From the NCBI RefSeq assembly GCF_013315695.1, contig NZ_CP054353.1: 64,000 bases of DNA; one strand, given 5' to 3'. Below are positions 1 to 59,882 of this stretch, piece after piece. Position 1 is the stretch's first letter. The number at the start of each line of letters is the position of its first letter. The notes under the pieces are model-generated. The model was not told the DNA's origin. It saw only the letters and a program-made list of their open reading frames with translations, and searched no databases. The translations under genes and the position numbers were made by a program. This stretch comes from Escherichia coli. GTDB taxonomy: Bacteria; Pseudomonadota; Gammaproteobacteria; Enterobacterales; Enterobacteriaceae.

Positions 1-11
1 GAATCCCCCCG

Positions 12-1067
12 TTAACCAATTTTGACGGTAACAAATTTGCGAATATCTGCCGGAACCGGCTGCGGTGCGCTGTGCGTCTGCACGTACTCAATCGCCGGAT
101 CGCCGTCCTCAATCCAGTTTTTCGGGTAAAACATGTTTTGCGTTGCGCCCGTTCTTACCGCTTCCTGTTCCAGGATCGCACCATAGGCCACCAGCCCTTT
201 ATTGTTGGTGTTGCCCAGGACCAGCAAATCAGGCTCAAGGAAATATTTTTCTGTGCCGTCGCTGTCAGTGTATTTGCCGGAATAGACGATAAGGGCCAGA
301 TCACCAAGATAGCCTTTAAAGCTCACCACTTCGCCCAGGTTTTTACATGCCAGCTCTGCGGCGGATTCTGAACCACGGGAGAGATCGTACAGTTCACGGA
401 ATTTTTTAAAGCTGCGTAACATGCGCCATACATCAACGCCCATAATCATGACGTTTGCGGGGCAACCTGCCTGATCTGCGTATAGCTCAATGTCATAGAT
501 TGGGTCGTGTATGTCTTTGTCCTGCTCTGACCATTTTTTACCGTCGGCCTGCTCTATGATGTTTTTTTCCGGTATCTTCCAGTCGATTTCATAGCGCTCT
601 ATGCCTTCGCCCTCAATGATGTTTTTTCCGGTCGTTACCGCATTTACCGCCAGCCATTCCACGCGCGCTTTAATGGCGTTTATCTGGCGGCGCATGTTGC
701 CAGTAATCAGGCGCATACGGCGGTAGGTAGGGTCGTTAAGCTGTGCTGGATCTTCTCCAGCCATGCGCATTATTGTTTTTAATGGATCGATTTCGTGTTT
801 TGGCTTCATGTAGCCAGGGCGAATAATGCTTGTTTCGTACCCTTTATCGCGCTGAACCTGGCTACCCACCATAGGCGAACAAAACGCCGACATAGTGACT
901 TCTTCAATATCCAGGTTATCTAACATGATGTCCTGTGTGTTGAATGTCGCCACGTTCGGGAAAAACAGCGCGGTAAACAGCGGACTGAATTTAAATTCCG
1001 CAATATCCTCGCGATTCAGGTACGCAAAAAGCTGGTTAGTGTTAAGTGCTATTGCTTTTACTGTCAT
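12..1067 (-). CDS. Major capsid protein, lambda gpE family
   Basis: 351-aa ORF; translation shares many conserved blocks with lambda E as I recall it (GY.KPKHE, DP.YRR.R, RSFK, RGS.SE, VYSG.Y, VLGNT, YPKNW..GDPA, QSAP). Start overlaps stop of upstream gene (TAATG); GGGGGTGA RBS. Confidence 0.8.
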   Translation of the reverse strand: MTVKAIALNTNQLFAYLNREDIAEFKFSPLFTALFFPNVATFNTQDIMLDNLDIEEVTMSAFCSPMVGSQVQRDKGYETSIIRPGYMKPKHEIDPLKTIMRMAGEDPAQLNDPTYRRMRLITGNMRRQINAIKARVEWLAVNAVTTGKNIIEGEGIERYEIDWKIPEKNIIEQADGKKWSEQDKDIHDPIYDIELYADQAGCPANVMIMGVDVWRMLRSFKKFRELYDLSRGSESAAELACKNLGEVVSFKGYLGDLALIVYSGKYTDSDGTEKYFLEPDLLVLGNTNNKGLVAYGAILEQEAVRTGATQNMFYPKNWIEDGDPAIEYVQTHSAPQPVPADIRKFVTVKIG

Positions 1068-1273
1068 TATTCACCCCCGTGAACCTGATTCATACCCAGC
1101 GCCGCGCGTAAATAGGCGCGTACCTGCCAGCCTGTTGACGGCTCAACCATCGCCAGCGGATCAAGTCCTGCCGCAATGCCTGCTTTTACGTTCTGCTGGT
1201 GGCGTTCCTTGAGCGCCTTCACGATGTCGGGGCTTATGTACACCGAAACACCGCCTTTTTTCTCTTCAGCCAT
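1067..1273 (-). CDS. Hypothetical small protein (68 aa), first gene of capsid operon
   Basis: ORF with AAGAGGA RBS ~10 nt upstream; translationally coupled to capsid gene; no recognisable family. Confidence 0.45.
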   Translation of the reverse strand: MAEEKKGGVSVYISPDIVKALKERHQQNVKAGIAAGLDPLAMVEPSTGWQVRAYLRAALGMNQVHGGE

Positions 1274-1304
1274 AGTAAGAAATTCCTCTTTGACTTAAAA
1301 AATC

Positions 1305-1358
1305 ATAACTGGATGTTCATCCAGTTATGATTATAATCATGATTGCATTTTGTGCAAT
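1305..1358 (-). promoter_or_regulatory. Promoter/operator of capsid operon: three adjacent palindromes overlapping sigma70-like -35/-10
   Basis: Perfect 24-bp palindrome ATAACTGGATG-TT-CATCCAGTTAT (1305-1328); 14-bp palindrome ATGATTATAATCAT (1327-1340) containing TATAAT on minus strand; ATTGCA-N5-TGCAAT (1342-1358) containing TTGCAC -35 at 16-bp spacing. Confidence 0.5.
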
Positions 1359-1436
1359 GATATTGAGTTGCGTTGCAAATTATGAAATTATTATCCCGAT
1401 CATGTGTGTCAGTGCACCAAAAAACCTCATATGCAA

Positions 1437-1510
1437 AAGCCCGATAAGCCACCTCTGACCTTATCGGGCTTTTTTTGGGCGCAAAAAAGCCGGATTGCTC
1501 CGGCTGTGTG
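1437..1510 (-). terminator. Two tandem hairpin terminators downstream of PerC-like gene
   Basis: GCCCGATAAG...CTTATCGGGC hairpin flanked by A-run and T-run (bidirectional), then AGCCGG-attgct-CCGGCT hairpin followed by T-run on minus strand. Confidence 0.5.
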
Positions 1511-1527
1511 GTGTGGTTCTGGTATTC

Positions 1528-1776
1528 CTACTCTGCTAATTTGCTCAGCCCCATGTCTGCGTAAGTGCGATTTACTGCATTTCTCAGGTCTGCATAGTTC
1601 TCCGTTGGCGGCTCCGGTGGCCTCTGTGCCTTCCTGGAACATTCCAGCCGTCGCATCGTGATGTGATGCCGTTCCTTGTCTGTCTCCACCAGCATCATGA
1701 CTTCACCCCATCGCGCCGCCGCCCTCCGGTAAAATCCTTTCGCTTCGAGTTCTTCCGCTATGCGGTCATGTACCAT
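1528..1776 (-). CDS. PerC-like transcriptional regulator (82 aa)
   Basis: Start chosen at internal ATG with GAGGGGGTGA RBS 10 nt after SSB stop; motif AEELEAKGFYRRAAARW resembles the PerC/Pch family signature from memory; needs profile search. Confidence 0.45.
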   Translation of the reverse strand: MVHDRIAEELEAKGFYRRAAARWGEVMMLVETDKERHHITMRRLECSRKAQRPPEPPTENYADLRNAVNRTYADMGLSKLAE

Positions 1777-1786
1777 CGTCACCCCC

Positions 1787-2197
1787 TCAGAACGGAATAT
1801 CATCACCGTAAGGGTCATCGCCTCCCGCTGGTGGCTGATTACCCTGTGCGCCTGTGGTTTTGCGTCTGTTCCCGCCAGGACGTGCCGCACGGGCACTGAT
1901 TACGCTGTCTGCAATAACCTGATAACCCTGACGCGTCTCCCCGTTCTGTCCGGTCCACTGGCTTACCTGCATCGTGCCGGATACGCTGGCAACGTCGCCT
2001 TTTTGATGTTTAGCCAGGAAGTCGGCCTGCTTACCAAATGCGATGACCGATAGCCATAACGTCGCCTGTCCGTCCTGTGCCTGACTGCATGGCAGTGATA
2101 CCGCCATACGCGCCAGCGTCATCGGTGTGCCCTTGCTGGTCTGTTTTACCTGCGGGTCGTCCACCAGCCGACCGTAAGCCGCTATCTGTGCTGTCAT
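1787..2197 (-). CDS. ssb: Single-stranded DNA-binding protein (SSB)
   Basis: 136-aa ORF, Gly/Pro/Gln-rich C-terminal linker ending in acidic tip ...GDDIPF, the hallmark SSB C-terminus; GGAGAGGTGG RBS; ATGA overlap with upstream gene. Confidence 0.8.
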   Translation of the reverse strand: MTAQIAAYGRLVDDPQVKQTSKGTPMTLARMAVSLPCSQAQDGQATLWLSVIAFGKQADFLAKHQKGDVASVSGTMQVSQWTGQNGETRQGYQVIADSVISARAARPGGNRRKTTGAQGNQPPAGGDDPYGDDIPF

Positions 2198-2445
2198 GAT
2201 TCCACCTCTCCGGTTTTAACGTTGATGGTTGTTACCTGTTCCGCTTCGGCAATCTCCCGTTCTGTCAGCGTGGCAAAGTTTGCCGCCGCCGTGGTCATGA
2301 ATGCGCTTATCAGGTCGGGATGTTCCTTCGCGTATCCTTCCCGCGTGTGGCGGTCTATCGTTCTGATTGCCACCTTTAAGGTGTGCTCAGTCATGTCTAA
2401 CGCTTTATATTTTGGCTCTGTTCTGTCTCTGCGTGTTCTGGTCAT
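2194..2445 (-). CDS. Hypothetical protein (83 aa) between ori and ssb
   Basis: ORF with GAGGTGG RBS before ATG at 2445 (ORF track extends to TTG at 2457); coupled to ssb by ATGA overlap; no recognised family. Confidence 0.45.
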   Translation of the reverse strand: MTRTRRDRTEPKYKALDMTEHTLKVAIRTIDRHTREGYAKEHPDLISAFMTTAAANFATLTEREIAEAEQVTTINVKTGEVES

Positions 2446-2477
2446 TTGCCACCTCAATTTATATATATAGAAACATG

Positions 2478-2795
2478 TGCGGGTTATGCGGGTTATTGGG
2501 TTATCTTAGCGTGCTAACCATTTTTTATCCTTTTATATCAGTATTTTGCAAAACACCCTGTTTATTATTTGCCCACCACGTAACCCGCAAAACGCTCAAA
2601 ATAACCCGCAAACGGGGTTTTTTCTGCGGGTTACGCATGACTGTCCGGTGTTACTTCAGTTATTCGCCTGCGGGTTATAATCGTGCTTTTGCGGGTTATA
2701 AATGCCCTTTTGCGGGTTACGTGCGGGTTATTGGTTTCCTTTATATTCATGCACTTAATACACTTATACACAGGATAACCCGCATAACCCGCAAT
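2478..2795. repeat. Iteron array / replication origin of the island
   Basis: About 11 copies of the 9-mer GCGGGTTA(T/C) in both orientations with AT-rich spacers, including tandem pairs, directly downstream of the primase-helicase gene. Confidence 0.7.
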
Positions 2796-2815
2796 TTTTT
2801 TCCTCACACAGGGGA

Positions 2816-4939
2816 TTAATCTTCATCATCAGGCTGGAACATCAGCACGTAAAAAACATGCTGCTTACCCCCAATCTTGCCCAGCGCCTTTTTTTTGTAT
2901 CGGCGATCGCTTCCCTTCTCCAGCATTCCGGCAGCATCCAGGGCACGCGCAAAATGCGCCGGATTAAATCCCTTCGCTATCTCACTCTCAAACACGTGCG
3001 GGAACGTGTAATAGCGCATCTCGTCATCTTCGTTGCGAATGCTCCCTTTTCTGTATCCGGCAAGCTCTTTAATCGGTAAATCACGCTCATCTGTATTGGG
3101 GTACGGAAGGTAGCGGCTAAACCCAAACGACGACAAAAACGCCTCAGCCTGTTCAACCATCTGTTTAAATTCCCTGTTACCCGTGCCGAACTCCTTCACC
3201 CAGGCATTAAAGTTATGCTGTATCGCGTCGCGGCATTCCTGCACGACCCAGCCAGTTACATGACCGGAAAGCACAAGCGCGGCCTCCAGTATGGCGAAAC
3301 GTTCACCCACGCGGTGGACCTGCTCGCCGTAGCTCTCCGGTATCAGGTTGCGCCACCGTTCGCGGCATTCCCTTACCGTATCCTTTGCCTCCTGCTGGTG
3401 GCCTGCCAGCCATTTAACCCACTCACGACCCGCCGCCCCGTGATTTGCTGTCCAGGCATCCTTTAACGCGTCAGCATGTTCCTTACCGTTGCTGTATTCG
3501 TGAAATTTCGTGGCTTTTTCCATCGGAACGTTAAGCAGTCGGACAAGCTGCCCCGCCTTAACTTTTATCCCCTCACTTTTGAGGAATGTCTCAACGTCCA
3601 TTTCTCCGGTGCTGATTGCCACCGTTCGCCAGTGTTTGATCTCCCTGTTGCCGCCATCCTTCGCCCCCTGCAATTTCCCTGAACCGTTAAACAGCGTATA
3701 AGCAGACGTTGACACTTCCCGCGCATTTCCGGCCTGGCCTATCTCATCCAGTGGTAAAAGCCCGTCATTATGGGCCTCGGCCTCATTGGCAATACCTAAC
3801 GCCGTGCCGTACCAGGTCAGCCGCTGCGCGTCCGGCTCTCCCCATAAACTTGATGCGATGTTCTGCGTGGTGGTCTTACCTGCCGATGACTGTTCGAAAA
3901 GATGCACCCCGAAGCCGTCAGCACCCACAAGGCCAATTAAAGGCGCTGCCAGTGACGTTGCCACACCCAGCATCATTGAGGCATTACCGCCAGCCAGCCG
4001 CGCCACACTCTCGCGCCAGCCCTCCGCCGTACCCGCCACGGAATAACCGTTAATCGCGGCGCTTTTTCCGGTAAACAGGATCGGTTTTTCAGAATCACCA
4101 ATGATCGAACCGTCCGGCATGATGTACGCGCCAAAATGCCAGCCCGTTGTTGTGCTTAACTGCCATTCCTCATGGCTTCCGCTTAACTGCATCCAGTCCG
4201 CCAGGATTGCCCTGTATTTGCCGTTGGTTGTCACGTTCAGCCCGTGATCTTTAAGTAACCGCCAGCCGTCACGGTCGCCGATACCACCACACGGGATCGC
4301 CATTGTGATGACTTCATGATTTGCTAATTTTTTCCAGCGCATGACGCGGTAATGCTCTTTACCGATCGTCCCCGTTCCCAGTAGTTCAAGCGGAGAACAT
4401 AACCACGTCTCAGGCCGGATAATTTCGCCTGACTGCTTATCCACTTTGGGCGTTACCCAGAAAACACCATCGGCGCGACTTTCAACGCGTGGCTTTAATT
4501 CGTCATCGCTATGGCTTCCGGTATCTTTTTTCTTTACCGGAAACTCAATAACCAGACCATCAGAAAGATTCTGCCGCTCACGGGCCAGATATTCGCGCCA
4601 GTTCTCCACCTCCTGACCGTGCATTCCATCAGGGTAAAAATTTGCATCCTGTACGCCTGCCGCCGCCAGCTTCTGACCAATCGCCTTGATCATTACTGGC
4701 TCAAGATGTCCGGCCCTGAATATGCGTACTGATTTTCGGCCTTCCGGCACAATTTGCAGCTTATCCAGTTCGGCAAGTTGTTGCTCTCCAAGCCAGACAG
4801 GAGGCACGTTATCGCCAGCCAGTCGCCCGTCCTGTTCCTGCCACTGTTTCGCATGTGCCCAGGCATCACTACCCGCAAAAATGATGACTTCCGTCATTTT
4901 GTCACGTGGCTGGTGTTTTAAATTTGGCGCTTTTTTCAT
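2816..4939 (-). CDS. Primase-helicase (P4 alpha-like, D5/SF3-type)
   Basis: ~707-aa ORF; Walker A-like SSAGKTTT; size and position (next to iteron ori, downstream of int/alpA) typical of satellite replication proteins. Likely start ATG at 4939 with GGAGAG RBS, overlapping upstream stop (ATGA); ORF track extends to 4954. Confidence 0.75.
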   Translation of the reverse strand: MKKAPNLKHQPRDKMTEVIIFAGSDAWAHAKQWQEQDGRLAGDNVPPVWLGEQQLAELDKLQIVPEGRKSVRIFRAGHLEPVMIKAIGQKLAAAGVQDANFYPDGMHGQEVENWREYLARERQNLSDGLVIEFPVKKKDTGSHSDDELKPRVESRADGVFWVTPKVDKQSGEIIRPETWLCSPLELLGTGTIGKEHYRVMRWKKLANHEVITMAIPCGGIGDRDGWRLLKDHGLNVTTNGKYRAILADWMQLSGSHEEWQLSTTTGWHFGAYIMPDGSIIGDSEKPILFTGKSAAINGYSVAGTAEGWRESVARLAGGNASMMLGVATSLAAPLIGLVGADGFGVHLFEQSSAGKTTTQNIASSLWGEPDAQRLTWYGTALGIANEAEAHNDGLLPLDEIGQAGNAREVSTSAYTLFNGSGKLQGAKDGGNREIKHWRTVAISTGEMDVETFLKSEGIKVKAGQLVRLLNVPMEKATKFHEYSNGKEHADALKDAWTANHGAAGREWVKWLAGHQQEAKDTVRECRERWRNLIPESYGEQVHRVGERFAILEAALVLSGHVTGWVVQECRDAIQHNFNAWVKEFGTGNREFKQMVEQAEAFLSSFGFSRYLPYPNTDERDLPIKELAGYRKGSIRNEDDEMRYYTFPHVFESEIAKGFNPAHFARALDAAGMLEKGSDRRYKKKALGKIGGKQHVFYVLMFQPDDED

Positions 4940-5235
4940 TTCTGCTCTCTCCACGCGGCAATCATGTTTTTCAGTTCCTGTAGTTTTTTATCCACATCCA
5001 CACGTGACACATGGTTATTTCTGGAAGTCGGGATTTCCCGCCTGAATCTGCTAATAAAGATCTCCACGTTCAGCGAACTATGAAATGAATAGCCATCACG
5101 AATAAAATACACACGGTCAAACATCAGTTCTTTTACCGTTACTCTGTTGCCGTTCTTATCCAGATAAATAGCGCCGGGGATAATTTTGGGGTGTGCATAA
5201 CCGCTGGCAGTCAAGCCAGATAAATATGTTCTCAT
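4936..5235 (-). CDS. Hypothetical protein (99 aa), low-GC cargo
   Basis: ORF translationally coupled to primase gene (ATGA); local GC ~30-38% versus ~50% for neighbours; no recognised domain. Confidence 0.5.
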   Translation of the reverse strand: MRTYLSGLTASGYAHPKIIPGAIYLDKNGNRVTVKELMFDRVYFIRDGYSFHSSLNVEIFISRFRREIPTSRNNHVSRVDVDKKLQELKNMIAAWREQK

Positions 5236-5241
5236 GATTAT

Positions 5242-5562
5242 TTATCCCCGATTTGAATCAGTATTCGCTTTCTTTATAGCATTTAATGCATTTGTGGCAT
5301 TTTCAATGGTGCACCGTAACGAAATATCAAACTGCCCAAGCATTGCCAGTAACAAACCGATATTACCCATATCAATGCGCATGGCCTTTTCGTCATATTC
5401 CTCATTTTCTGACGCATACCACATCAGGCTACCAATTGACGCAATACCCATTGATATATTGTCAGTAGCCCCATCCGCAGCGGAATAAACTTTTTTAGCA
5501 ATATCATGCTCACAGTTAAAATGCGGATTAATCAGGTACTGGTAATTGGTCATGTCAGGCAT
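5242..5562 (-). CDS. Hypothetical protein (106 aa), low-GC cargo
   Basis: ORF starting ATGCCTGA-overlapped with upstream 67-aa gene; low GC; no recognised domain. Confidence 0.5.
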   Translation of the reverse strand: MPDMTNYQYLINPHFNCEHDIAKKVYSAADGATDNISMGIASIGSLMWYASENEEYDEKAMRIDMGNIGLLLAMLGQFDISLRCTIENATNALNAIKKANTDSNRG

Positions 5563-5758
5563 GGCACACCCCCTGACGAATACGGGCGGCGAATACCATC
5601 ACGCAGCCAGCCGGGGATTGCTGGCGTGCTTCCTGTTCGCTGCTGGCCTCAATGGTAATCACGCGCGGTTGTGCCGTGCTCAGGGCGATAAAACGCCAGA
5701 TGTATTTATTCAGGTTGTGCGAGTCCCGCCCTTGCGGGTGTGTGGTATGATTTAACAT
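5555..5758 (-). CDS. Small conserved satellite protein (67 aa), possibly Icd-like
   Basis: 3' portion of a long spurious ORF; ATG at 5758 preceded by GAGG; native-like GC; YIWRF...FAARIR pattern vaguely matches Icd-like annotations from memory (unverified). Confidence 0.4.
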   Translation of the reverse strand: MLNHTTHPQGRDSHNLNKYIWRFIALSTAQPRVITIEASSEQEARQQSPAGCVMVFAARIRQGVCHA

Positions 5759-5839
5759 AGCTACCTCGATACTGTTGCTATCGTTGGTTGTTAGACGCCC
5801 TGCATGTGTTGCGAGCACTGCGGGGCGTTGCTCTTTCAG

Positions 5840-5885
5840 GTGTATTTCACCTTTGCTTTTTAATTTACTCACTGGTGAAATACAC
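5840..5885. promoter_or_regulatory. Perfect 12-bp inverted repeat in divergent promoter region (candidate operator)
   Basis: GTGTATTTCACC (5840-5851) and GGTGAAATACAC (5874-5885) separated by a 22-nt loop, followed by T-rich tract; lies between divergently oriented 67-aa gene and RHH gene. Confidence 0.45.
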
Positions 5886-5951
5886 TTCAAGCCTTTTTTT
5901 ATCATTTTTTTTGCGTATACTGACATACACCAATTTTTAGGAGATCCAGAA

Positions 5952-6131
5952 ATGGCAACTGGTGCAAAGAACGCAAAATCACAAATGACAACTGTCAGAA
6001 TCCCACATGAAGTAATGGATGATATTGAGCAACTTAAAGAACCTGGCGAAAGTACCGCTGGTTTTTTAGTTACTGCCGCAAAAGGCGAGATCAAACGCCG
6101 CCAGCGCCGCAAGGCCAAAGAATCAGAATAA
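5952..6131 (+). CDS. Ribbon-helix-helix-like small DNA-binding protein (59 aa), candidate repressor
   Basis: ATG at 5952 preceded by AGGAGAT RBS; N-terminal region (TTVRIPHEVMDDIEQLK) has RHH/CopG-like character; basic C-terminal tail. Confidence 0.45.
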   Translation: MATGAKNAKSQMTTVRIPHEVMDDIEQLKEPGESTAGFLVTAAKGEIKRRQRRKAKESE

Positions 6132-6188
6132 TCACTATCAGCGCCGTGGCGTGAGGTACTCCGGCGCATTGCTTTACAGGTCAGTACT

Positions 6189-6398
6189 ATGAGCAAAAAA
6201 CACCGATCAGCAGATGAGATTTTTGCAGAACAACGAAGATTGCTTTTGCAAAGTATCATTTCACGCCAGCAAGAGAAGGCGCGAGCTAAACAAATGCCAC
6301 CAAATACAGAACCAGCGCCTACAAGATTTGCGCTTGATGATTTTCTCGATAAACACCCCAGGGTAATGAAAGCAAACAAAAACCGCCCACCAGCCTGA
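6189..6398 (+). CDS. Hypothetical protein (69 aa)
   Basis: ORF downstream of RHH gene on same strand, followed by a strong terminator; weak RBS; no recognised family. Confidence 0.35.
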   Translation: MSKKHRSADEIFAEQRRLLLQSIISRQQEKARAKQMPPNTEPAPTRFALDDFLDKHPRVMKANKNRPPA

Positions 6399-6441
6399 TA
6401 GCGGCTATCATCCCCGTGCTTATGTTTAGTGTTTCCAAACT

Positions 6442-6469
6442 GGCGACCTCCCAAGGTCGCCTTTTTTTT
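6442..6469 (+). terminator. Rho-independent terminator
   Basis: GGCGACCT-ccca-AGGTCGCC hairpin followed by T8. Confidence 0.65.
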
Positions 6470-6488
6470 ATGTGCCATTGTCACCACC

Positions 6489-6785
6489 TCAAGCGGCCTT
6501 GCCTGAATTAATGCGTTCGCGGTTTTTGACCCACGCCACAACCTCAGACTTAACCCAGCCAACAGAACGACCGCCGAGACTGATACGGGAGGGGAAGCGG
6601 CCCTGCTTTTCCATCTCGTAACGAGTTGTGCGGCAAACGCCTGTTAGCTCTCTGCATTCTTTTTCGCGGATTACGCGATCTTCATTTATTTCACGCATAC
6701 AAAAACCTACATAAAAATTACGTATATAAACTTTTCTCTTAGCTGTAGATATATGAGATCGGATATTACTTAGATTCTTTTTCAC
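6489..6785 (-). CDS. alpA: AlpA/Vis-family phage transcriptional regulator / excisionase-like
   Basis: C-terminal part matches AlpA-type HTH pattern (ECRELTGVCRTTRYEMEKQGRFP...GGRSVGWVKSEVVAWV). Start uncertain: GTG at 6785 or ATG at 6698. Confidence 0.6.
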   Translation of the reverse strand: MKKNLSNIRSHISTAKRKVYIRNFYVGFCMREINEDRVIREKECRELTGVCRTTRYEMEKQGRFPSRISLGGRSVGWVKSEVVAWVKNRERINSGKAA

Positions 6786-7107
6786 CTCTTAAATTAAAAA
6801 CACAACCATGCTAAAGGCTTTGTTCGCTAAGGTTCGTAGAAGCTCGTTAGTGTTTAAAATCGTGTCACGAGTTTTTAAGCGACGCAACAAAAAATGTCGT
6901 TATTTGGCATGACACCTGAATTACCTCATTAAAAACAAATAGATAAACCATCAGGTGTTGGAACAATCAAGAAACAGAGAATAAGAACTAAGAAGAAGAC
7001 ATTTCAAATTTTTTCAATACTTGACACATATAAATCGTCGATATTTGCCGATATTCGACGATTTATTTTAGAGGGCCATTTTTCGCAAGAAAAACAGCCG
7101 TAATTTG

Positions 7108-8346
7108 TCAAGAATTTTGGGAGTAAATTCGCGGGGTCATAACAACGATTTTTTCATCATTGTTCTGGAGAAGCTCGAGACGCTCAACCCATAGATTAAG
7201 AGCGTCACGTTTTGCATCGAGATAACGGGAGTGATTATAGACTCGTTGCATTCCTGGCAACTGGTGCGCGGTTAGCTGCTCCACTACATGAGGATCCACG
7301 CCTAAATCGTTCAGCATCGTTGTAAACGTGTGCCGGATGTCGTGCAACGTCCAGGGGGCTTGATTAATGCGTCTGTGTGCCGTTCTTCCGTACTCTGATA
7401 CAGATGATTGCCCTTTCAGTTCTCCGAGTAATAAGCCCGTGTGTCGGTTCTGCTCCACCAGCTTCGTTACGAACGGCAAGATCGCTTCCGGTATTGGCCT
7501 GAATATTGCTACCTTCGTTTTGCTGTGTTCTTTCGGCACAGTCCAGAGCATTTCTTTAAAATCCCATTCCTGGACCTCAGAGCGTCTTAGCTCAGTGGTA
7601 CGGCATCCGAAGACAATCAGGAGGCGAATCAGGGCGCTGTAGTACGGTGTGTAAATTTTTTCATCCAGGGCGCGTAGTAATTCCCCAAGCTCCTTGTTTG
7701 TTAGTACGCGCTCGCTTATTTCTGCTTTTTTCCCAACATCACCTACAACCATATCATCTAGAACGTTGGTAATTGCGTAGCGTCGTTTGCGGCAGTACTT
7801 AAGCGCCTGCTTGCATACCTGTAACAAAAATCCTGCTGATACCGGATTACGCATAGCAAGCTGATCAAAACAGGTCAGCCAGTGGCGTAGCTCGCATTTT
7901 TCCAGCGGCATAGCACCAATATGGCTGATTATGTGTGTATTGATCCGGCTTTTCAGAGATTCGTAATCTGTGCGCTTTTCCTTCGCGTACGATTCAAGCC
8001 AGTAAGTGAGCGCTTCCTTAACCGTAACAGGTGATAACGCTTCCTGTACGGTGTGATTAAGCTCATGGCGTGGATTTTTACCCTCAGCAAGCCAGGCGCG
8101 ACACTGCGACGCTTTTTCCCTGGCTGCTTTCAGGCTCAAATCTGGATAATTTCCCAGCCTCAGACGTTCAGGGGCTACCTTCCTGCCTGTTCCGGCCCTG
8201 TAAGTGAAATACCAGGTTAACAGGCCATTGGTTGAATGCCTTACGCTAAGGTTGCCACCATCATTAAAAAAGGTGTTTTTTGTGGTTGGTGATCCGCTTA
8301 ATTTTCGTAAAAGAGTGTCGCTAAGTCTATGAATTGCCCTGCTCAT
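7108..8346 (-). CDS. int: Tyrosine-type site-specific integrase
   Basis: 412-aa ORF; C-terminal catalytic region with HDIRHT and ...VYNHSRY (R-H-R-Y family pattern); located at island edge next to host gene. Confidence 0.85.
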   Translation of the reverse strand: MSRAIHRLSDTLLRKLSGSPTTKNTFFNDGGNLSVRHSTNGLLTWYFTYRAGTGRKVAPERLRLGNYPDLSLKAAREKASQCRAWLAEGKNPRHELNHTVQEALSPVTVKEALTYWLESYAKEKRTDYESLKSRINTHIISHIGAMPLEKCELRHWLTCFDQLAMRNPVSAGFLLQVCKQALKYCRKRRYAITNVLDDMVVGDVGKKAEISERVLTNKELGELLRALDEKIYTPYYSALIRLLIVFGCRTTELRRSEVQEWDFKEMLWTVPKEHSKTKVAIFRPIPEAILPFVTKLVEQNRHTGLLLGELKGQSSVSEYGRTAHRRINQAPWTLHDIRHTFTTMLNDLGVDPHVVEQLTAHQLPGMQRVYNHSRYLDAKRDALNLWVERLELLQNNDEKIVVMTPRIYSQNS

Positions 8347-8401
8347 GTTTCGAATTTCCGGTCATCAAAATTAACTACACCATTGACTACACCGAGCATC
8401 G

Positions 8402-8434
8402 TACAAGGGCGAACTGTGACGAACAAGGGCGAAC
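8402..8434. repeat. Direct repeats (ACAAGGGCGAAC x2) in int-proximal attachment region
   Basis: Two copies of a 12-mer 8 bp apart, plus CGAACAC repeats nearby, between int start and cspD; candidate integrase arm-type sites. Confidence 0.3.
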
Positions 8435-8750
8435 AAGAAAAACGAAATTATCCTTTATAATCATAGAAATAAATGAGATACCTACACCATGACGAACACC
8501 CACGAACACTAACTGATAAATAACTATCATCTATCGTTGGCATCAGCGACATCTGTCACATTCCTGTCAATAGCGTTAACTGCTTCAAATTTTTGATTCA
8601 TACCTGCCCCCTGGCCCCTGTCAAATGCTTGACGGCTCGCCCTAATTCTCTAAATTGTATTTCTAGAGTTGGCGAGGTTTTGAACAGCCCCCTCTCTGAC
8701 CCCGGTTTATTCCATCTTACTTGTATAAGATTTGCGAAGGATGTCGAAGC

Positions 8751-8975
8751 ATGGAAAAGGGTACTGTTAAGTGGTTCAACAATGCCAAAGGGTTTGGTTT
8801 CATCTGCCCTGAAGGCGGCGGCGAAGATATTTTCGCTCATTATTCCACCATTCAGATGGATGGTTACAGAACGCTAAAAGCTGGACAATCCGTTCAGTTT
8901 GATGTCCACCAGGGGCCAAAAGGCAATCACGCCAGTGTTATTGTGCCCGTCGAAGTAGAAGCGGCAGTCGCATAG
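8751..8975 (+). CDS. cspD: Stationary-phase cold-shock-domain protein CspD
   Basis: 74-aa translation MEKGTVKWFNNAKGFGFI... recognised as CspD; ORF track begins upstream at an earlier in-frame ATG. Confidence 0.9.
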   Translation: MEKGTVKWFNNAKGFGFICPEGGGEDIFAHYSTIQMDGYRTLKAGQSVQFDVHQGPKGNHASVIVPVEVEAAVA

Positions 8976-9010
8976 CTCTTCTGTCTCATTGTGTACATCC
9001 TAAAGGCAAA

Positions 9011-58700: not shown

Positions 58701-59882
58701 ATGCATAACTCCCCCGCAGTCTCCAGCGCGAAATCGTTTGACCTGACCTCGACGGCGTTTTTAATCGTTGCCTTTCTCACCGGTATTGCGGGCGCTCTGC
58801 AAACCCCGACACTCAGTATTTTTCTTACTGATGAAGTACATGCCCGTCCGGCGATGGTGGGATTCTTCTTTACCGGCAGCGCTGTCATTGGGATTCTGGT
58901 CAGTCAGTTTCTCGCCGGGCGCTCTGATAAGCGCGGCGATCGCAAATCGCTGATTGTCTTTTGCTGCCTGTTAGGCGTGCTGGCCTGCACTCTTTTTGCC
59001 TGGAATCGCAACTACTTTGTTTTGCTATTCGTTGGCGTCTTTCTTAGCAGCTTTGGCTCAACTGCTAACCCGCAAATGTTTGCCCTTGCCCGTGAACATG
59101 CCGACAAAACCGGACGTGAGGCGGTGATGTTCAGCTCTTTTTTACGCGCTCAGGTTTCACTGGCATGGGTCATTGGCCCGCCGCTGGCTTATGCCTTAGC
59201 GATGGGTTTCAGCTTTACGGTAATGTATCTGAGCGCAGCGGTAGCGTTTATTGTTTGCGGCGTGATGGTGTGGCTGTTTTTACCGTCGATGCAAAAAGAA
59301 CTTCCACTGGCGACCGGCACGGTTGAAGCGCCGCGCCGTAACCGTCGCGATACGCTGCTGCTGTTTGTCATTTGTACATTGATGTGGGGCTCGAACAGCC
59401 TGTACATCATCAACATGCCGCTATTTATTATCAACGAACTGCATCTTCCCGAGAAACTGGCCGGTGTGATGATGGGGACCGCCGCCGGGCTGGAAATCCC
59501 GACCATGTTGATTGCCGGATATTTCGCCAAACGTCTGGGTAAGCGTTTCTTAATGCGCGTTGCTGCCGTGGGTGGCGTCTGTTTTTACGCAGGAATGCTG
59601 ATGGCGCATTCACCTGCCATTCTGTTGGGCTTGCAGCTGCTAAATGCTATTTTTATTGGCATTCTGGGCGGCATCGGGATGCTTTATTTTCAGGATTTGA
59701 TGCCCGGTCAGGCAGGTTCAGCCACCACGCTCTATACCAACACGTCGCGCGTGGGCTGGATCATCGCAGGATCTGTGGCGGGCATCGTCGCCGAGATCTG
59801 GAATTATCACGCTGTGTTCTGGTTTGCGATGGTGATGATTATCGCCACTCTGTTTTGCTTACTGCGGATTAAAGATGTTTAA
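58701..59882 (+). CDS. setB: Sugar efflux transporter B (MFS)
   Basis: 393-aa 12-TM MFS protein; K-12 synteny. Confidence 0.85.

Follow-up and report, generated by a model that had tools for sequence, protein, structure and literature searches.

What does a mobile island gain by encoding an SSB of its own in a host that already has one? This question is raised by ssb, an open reading frame within a satellite-type island of Escherichia coli. The frame lies in a 64,000-nucleotide stretch of contig NZ_CP054353.1, hereafter the window, to which coordinates refer unless another locus is named. We addressed it by establishing what the frame encodes and what kind of element carries it, and by comparing the protein and its C-terminal tip with host SSB and with relatives from islands, phages, and plasmids.

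The ssb Frame Encodes a Bacterial-Type SSB

The frame runs from 2197 to 1787, with an ATG start, a TGA stop, and a Shine-Dalgarno-like sequence (GGAGAGGTGG) 5′ of the ATG. The encoded protein ends in the residues GGDDPYGDDIPF. It matched the Pfam SSB family (PF00436) with an E value of 4.2e-17 and 62.5 bits (cut-off 26), and the TIGR00621 ssb model with 58 bits, above the cut-off of 53.95. Sequence matches to it included 26 solved SSBs. An AlphaFold2 model built with a 73-sequence alignment reached a mean pLDDT of 88.7. In this model, residues 1-100 form the strands of an OB fold and one helix (pLDDT 95-98), while for residues 101-136 no secondary structure is predicted and confidence falls to block means of 61-71. 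The best 50 Foldseek matches of the model in the PDB were bacterial SSBs without exception, at a probability of 1.00.

Sequence and model together confirm that the frame encodes a genuine bacterial-type SSB and is not a chance ORF; the protein would be expected to bind ssDNA. A preliminary description of this DNA had proposed an SSB with an OB fold, and had looked to structure prediction for the presence or absence of that fold. Pfam, TIGR00621, AlphaFold2, and Foldseek all bear the proposal out, the fold being predicted across residues 1-100. The identification was already in the record, as RefSeq names an identical protein (WP_000126690.1) "single-stranded DNA-binding protein". Strain N10 carries WP_000126690.1, which matches the window SSB at 100% identity. 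Plus-strand ORFs over 1787-2197 (e.g. 1760-2053) are probably spurious, the minus-strand frame being under selection.

Gene Order Supports a Gram-Negative PICI

Both its anatomy and the published definition support assignment of the element that carries ssb to the Gram-negative PICIs, with a length of ~11 kb (Table 1). Its genes follow the order int, alpA, DUF927 primase-helicase, iteron origin, orf83, ssb, perC, terminator, and capsid genes. Every island gene except one is on the minus strand, and the island extends past the start of the window. Imperfect direct repeats that share the core AAATTAACTACACCATT are separated by 11,044 bp, the second copy being outside the window (9643-9715 of L001, the island of strain N10). 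The N10 island has the same gene order, and its 1.2-kb ssb region matches that of the window at 99.8% identity. That island sits between clpS and cspD and includes genes for head decoration and for a small terminase; its annotation contains no tail or lysis genes. No phage genome matched window positions 1-8600 by megablast. An Rfam search of positions 1-9000 gave no RNA family, including no P4-type C4/isrK immunity RNA. Helper-dependent behavior (induction, replication, and packaging) has been shown for the related model islands EcCICFT073 and EcCIEDL933. The integrase, AlpA, DUF927 primase-helicase, iteron origin, and att repeats agree with the earlier view that a satellite-type island carries ssb.

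Table 1. Coordinates of island features in the window
Feature	Position	Strand	Remarks
Late/packaging zone, start	12..1273	minus	orf68 (1067-1273) and lambda-E-type major capsid gene (12-1067)
Second hairpin	1439-1469		GCCCGATAAG/CTTATCGGGC; read from sequence
Terminator-like hairpin and T-run	1488..1505	minus	Just 3′ of perC
perC-family regulator gene	1528..1776	minus	82 aa from ATG at 1776
ssb	1787..2197	minus	136-aa SSB-family ORF; OB domain 1-100, linker ~101-127, tip DPYGDDIPF
orf83	2194..2445	minus	83-aa ORF from ATG at 2445 (87 aa from TTG); PHROG 1231
Putative replication origin	2478..2793		11 exact TGCGGGTTA iterons, both orientations; non-coding
pri	2816..4954	minus	DUF927 primase-helicase; RefSeq start at 4939
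Small ORFs including DUF4222	between alpA and pri	minus	
alpA-type regulator	6489..6785	minus	Phage_AlpA, E = 7e-16
Tyrosine integrase	7108..8346	minus	Island context
att core AAATTAACTACACCATT	8368..8384	plus	Integrase end of island

By chance, 0.5 copies of the TGCGGGTTA iteron would be expected in the whole window. An A+T-rich stretch at ~2500-2575 separates the first two of the 11 copies from the other nine. The described E. coli PICI origin lies 3′ of pri and has an A+T-rich region with a set of iterons on either side (PMC6092414), and the iteron region of the window is likely the replication origin of this island. The ssb gene is 281 bp downstream of it. Two further TGCGGGTTA matches, at 59066 and 62456, were considered as a sign of a second island. 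This candidate was rejected, as they fall in core genome (fruB, setB, yeiPQR) that is present in 5,425 of 5,426 genomes.

Between alpA and int (~6790-7100), the window holds ~277 bp more than the otherwise near-identical N10 island. A 335-aa ORF with a TTG start (5555-6562, minus strand) spans the regulatory region; it is probably spurious as a gene, since the homologous island has 65-aa Icd-like, plus-strand YlcI/YnfO, and HTH genes there. Outside the island, cspD, macB, macA, and ybjX lie at 8.4-14 kb, and fruB, setB, and yeiP/Q/R at 58-64 kb. We take these two groups to be far apart on the K-12 map, which would place a rearrangement breakpoint or a strain-specific architecture between them in the window.

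ssb Is Flanked Closely by orf83 and perC

The start codon of ssb (2197-2195) overlaps the TGA of orf83 (2196-2194) as ATGA, and perC starts 10 nt past the ssb stop. Judged from sequence, the two hairpins beyond perC likely mark the end of an orf83-ssb-perC transcription unit. Coupling of ssb to the 83-aa gene had been proposed before. The ATGA overlap is present in the window, but it recurs in only 42 of 81 relatives, which weakens the proposal. An extra 101-aa ORF lies between orf83 and ssb in 13 of the 81 relatives (e.g. L011 2496-2801), where it breaks the overlap; this ORF had no Pfam match.

The orf83 family is shallow and was found only in Escherichia, Shigella, and Citrobacter. Its product had no Pfam or PADLOC match, and its best match in the PDB was not significant (E = 0.94). 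A hit to COG5_N was treated as chance (E = 0.043; 14.5 bits against a cut-off of 31.2). The AlphaFold2 model of the orf83 product is helical and of low confidence (pLDDT 66.6). PADLOC also gave no defense-system match for ssb or its neighbors.

On the other side of ssb, a PerC-family gene follows directly in E. coli, in Klebsiella, and in an unassigned contig (window 1528-1776; L084 8049-8321; L085 9627-9911; L086 3571-3846). The SSB-PerC adjacency is kept across genera despite differing upstream genes.

A Host-Identical Tip on a Divergent OB Domain

In E. coli SSB, the aromatic residues W40, W54, F60, and W88 stack on ssDNA, and H55 is a residue of the subunit interface. Using as reference an E. 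coli SSB sequence identical to PDB 1eqq_A, we found an OB-domain identity of 26% between the host and island proteins, a value on which recent capture of host ssb was rejected. Three of the aromatics are kept in the island SSB (W54 as W48, F60 as F54, and W88 as W81). The equivalent of W40 is Cys37, within a poorly aligned loop. The equivalent of H55 is Leu49, and this position is hydrophobic throughout the short-SSB family. Among 72 short-SSB relatives, W48 is found in 65, F54 in all 72, and W or Y at position 81 in 68.

Along with the OB fold and these three aromatic equivalents, the island protein shares with chromosomal SSB (PDB 1EQQ) a disordered tail with a DDIPF end. The C-terminal nine residues are DPYGDDIPF in the island SSB and MDFDDDIPF in 1eqq_A, with DDIPF in common and DPYG replacing MDFD. 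The host-like DDIPF end that had been ascribed to the window copy is therefore host-identical over the last five residues. The proteins differ in length (136 aa for the island SSB, 178 aa for the host) and in the linker, which has ~27 residues in the island protein and ~56 in the host. They also differ in linker type, the island SSB having a basic RPGGNRRK stretch where the host has Gly/Gln/Pro-rich repeats. The minimum linker for function of E. coli SSB is reportedly 11-20 residues (PMC10164576). As the island linker exceeds this minimum, we count its length in favor of a functional SSB.

A Conserved Cassette in Mosaic Islands

Of 5,426 complete E. coli genomes, 1,615 matched the 1.2-kb ssb region by megablast, in up to six places per genome. 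A single-protein scan of IMG/VR gave 378 loci, of which 80 were retrieved and compared together with two annotated loci (82 in all). Across these 82 loci, ssb is 85-100% identical, and the pri, int, and packaging modules vary. The part common to all Pri proteins is confined to the N-terminal 130-230 residues, and identity among integrase alleles runs from 22 to 100%. Downstream, the loci carry either the lambda-E capsid set or another set. Among the latter are the genes of the O157:H7 capsid-forming island for an HK97-type capsid, a protease, a portal, and a terminase; the orf83-ssb-perC block is present in this island as well. Genes orf83 and ssb occur together in 80 of the 82 loci. On this comparison of loci, orf83-ssb-perC is a stable cassette within mosaic islands. 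Co-evolution of ssb with a particular Pri allele was rejected, as near-identical ssb genes are paired with several divergent Pri alleles.

Disrupted copies of ssb are few (2 of 83). Over 53 distinct alleles in the minus-strand frame, the Nei-Gojobori dN/dS was 0.15. By region, the OB domain gave a ratio of 0.13, the linker 0.29, and the tip 0.23, the last being drawn from nine codons and indistinguishable from the rest of ssb. These ratios indicate that ssb is evolving under purifying selection.

Relatives in Phages, Plasmids, and Other Islands

In 50,697 phage records, the best tblastn identity of the island SSB was 32.5%. With E. coli SSB as the query, 620 phage records matched at 60% identity or more and up to 92% (Escherichia, Salmonella, and Yersinia phages). 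Whereas the SSBs of enterobacterial phages are 60-92% host-like, the island SSB has 26% identity to the host. These values place the island SSB in a lineage separate from that of enterobacterial phage SSBs, one not found among the sequenced phages searched.

A library search with the island SSB gave 330 representative clusters at E ≤ 1e-10, mostly short SSBs of 115-175 aa. Among other bacteria, the short SSBs of small integrase/AlpA-like/primase islands (L088; Klebsiella L084) resemble it in having 125-150 aa and an OB domain. Their tails are 25-70 residues long, mostly 30-50, with a D-x-[IL]-P-F end. Their genes sit beside those for a primase or a helicase in small integrative elements, often with perC next. 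They differ in being 45-73% identical to the island SSB and in having other small genes upstream. The primases beside them are of the Zn-binding primase-helicase type or of the Toprim_3 plus AAA_25 type.

The arrangements are varied. A 22.9-kb circular element of Klebsiella (L084) has a primase-helicase, a small ORF unrelated to orf83, SSB, and PerC. A Klebsiella conjugative plasmid holds an SSB-PerC remnant, with an SSB from among the 45-73% relatives. An unassigned contig encodes an 842-aa protein, SSB, and PerC in order, and another island encodes int, HTH_17, SSB, Toprim_3, and AAA_25. L084 and a 10.6-kb circular Enterobacter element (L083) were deposited as "non-mobilizable plasmids". In both, the SSB module lies beside a large upstream ORF, which is an annotated primase-helicase in L084 and a 951-aa protein without annotation in L083. 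Further genes of L084 encode an antirepressor, an Icd-like protein, DUF4222, PerC, and an integrase. Both elements may be excised or plasmid-like satellites.

By analogy, the closest functional counterpart would be SsbF of the F plasmid. Like SsbF and phage SSBs, the island protein is an extra SSB on a mobile element and has a host-type C-terminal tip. SsbF partially complements chromosomal ssb mutants and co-localizes with host SSB, and with large ssDNA loads the SSB of the cell becomes limiting (PMC9849209). The two differ in place: SsbF is encoded in the conjugative leading region, whereas the island ssb lies beside a primase gene and an origin.

Natural Variation of the C-Terminal Tip

Tip sequences were compared in 81 full-length close relatives, the IMG/VR-derived loci L003-L082 among them. 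The tip GDDIPF was found in 39 loci (27 distinct nucleotide alleles), GDGIPF in 20 (15 alleles), GDDISF in 17 (7 alleles), GDDIQF in 3 (2 alleles), and GDNIPF in 2 (2 alleles). About half of the close relatives therefore carry tip substitutions, including Pro to Ser (17 of 81) and Pro to Gln (3 of 81). The preliminary description had the island SSB retaining the host-like tip; this holds for the window copy but not across its relatives, only 39 of 81 of which have GDDIPF. The Pro-to-Ser substitution at position −2 is the ssb-113 change (P176S), which greatly lowers the partner affinity of E. coli SSB and confers temperature sensitivity (PMC10164576).

Among the 72 short-SSB relatives, D is found at −5 in 68, P at −2 in 50, and F at −1 in 67, the last count being partly inflated by the selection of aromatic- or aliphatic-ended sequences. 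DDIPF and DNIPF predominate among 120 cluster representatives. Position −4 is variable in the whole short-SSB family, so that the D-to-G and D-to-N variants may be neutral. With substitutions in about half of the close relatives, canonical partner docking is not under absolute constraint. The tolerance of tips predicted to weaken docking tempers the case for partner recruitment as the selected function.

A Probable Auxiliary Role in Island Replication

Our data suggest that the island SSB is probably an auxiliary replication SSB, acting outside the minimal replicon. After induction, transcription would proceed in one direction from alpA to pri, through the origin, and into orf83-ssb-perC, a timing that we infer. 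The DUF927 primase-helicase would open the iteron origin, and the island SSB would coat the single strands so exposed. The tip of host SSB is read by the chi subunit of Pol III, PriA, and exonuclease I, and the DDIPF end of the island protein may dock these same readers. The benefit would be a supplement to the SSB pool, which would be limiting while island and helper phage both replicate.

We count for this role the fold, the kept aromatics, the identity of the tip, the place beside pri and the origin, conservation, and purifying selection. To these we add the recurrence of primase-SSB(-PerC) modules in Klebsiella and other small integrative elements, the SsbF precedent, and the placement of such genes near origins (PMC10111431). 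The replacements of W40 by Cys and of H55 by Leu, together with the tip substitutions, count against it. In E. coli, the pri+ori segment of EcCICFT073 is enough by itself for plasmid replication (PMC6092414). Since pri and ori replicate alone, the island SSB would not be required for initiation and is probably not essential. Its role would differ from that of the chromosomal SSB in being accessory.

The tip invites a different explanation, raised in the preliminary description as competition for partners, in which the island SSB would mainly titrate the proteins that interact with host SSB, or would take the place of host SSB on the DNA of helper or host. Replication, recombination, or SOS signaling would then be biased to the island, rather than island replication being served. 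A host-identical tip on an OB domain otherwise 26% identical is what such a factor might look like. The lineage is moreover satellite-specific, its best phage match being 32.5% in 50,697 records against phage SSBs that are 60-92% host-like, and polymorphism at critical tip positions could reflect tuning of the partners engaged. We nevertheless regard interference as unlikely. A replication role is the simpler fit to the position of ssb beside pri and the origin, the tip dN/dS (0.23 over nine codons) cannot be told apart from that of the rest of ssb, and family-wide variability at −4 leaves the D-to-G/N changes possibly neutral. Decidedly unlikely, in our view, is a protein dedicated to island-encoded partners (the Pri helicase, the product of orf83), for which it would act as loader or processivity partner and which, rather than host factors, would read its tip. 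Its appeal lies in the ATGA overlap with orf83 (the window and 42 of 81 relatives) and in the co-occurrence of the two genes at 80 of 82 loci. However, near-identical ssb alleles accompany Pri alleles with only the N-terminal 130-230 aa in common, Klebsiella has an unrelated gene in the place of orf83 upstream of ssb, and 13 loci have another ORF between orf83 and ssb. The low-confidence orf83 model is uninformative.

That replication from pri+ori proceeds alone (PMC6092414) could also mean that ssb is a dispensable passenger, conserved but redundant, whose loss would have no phenotype because host SSB suffices. Model-island papers do not place ssb among the genes required for transfer, and ssb-113-like tips are tolerated, as would be expected of a passenger. 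Yet a gene of this kind would hardly show purifying selection (dN/dS of 0.15 over 53 alleles), be kept across mosaic islands and genera, and be disrupted in only 2 of 83 copies, and we find this explanation very improbable.

Place in the Literature and Implications

"Primase, SSB and DUF5906" have been assigned to the replication category of Gram-negative and helper-embedded PICIs, located near mapped origins (Mageeney et al. 2023, PMC10111431). The SSB described here agrees with that replication-zone SSB in family, kind of element, and position, with no structural difference. The literature treats the latter as a family listing alone, without function, tip analysis, or genetics. SSB is not mentioned in the founding PICI paper, the capsid-forming PICI preprint, the SatelliteFinder paper, or the EcCIMP1 paper, and our literature search found no functional study (expression, binding, or genetics) of this SSB. 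As a feature, the island ssb is already known and annotated; it is an accessory replication gene, itself very common, of a very common E. coli island family.

As it stands, ssb provides context for the island replication module composed of pri, the iteron origin, orf83, ssb, and perC. A more far-reaching idea, which we consider quite unlikely, is that the host-mimicking tip alleles of this satellite-specific SSB evolve to discriminate among host SSB-interacting proteins, recruiting some and starving others. Such an SSB would be a selective hub or a dominant-negative and would favor satellite replication over helper phage or host repair. If the island SSB did feed or starve the host SSB network in this way, it would be a new lever for tilting replication against helper phages, and the natural tip alleles would constitute a ready-made mutational series.
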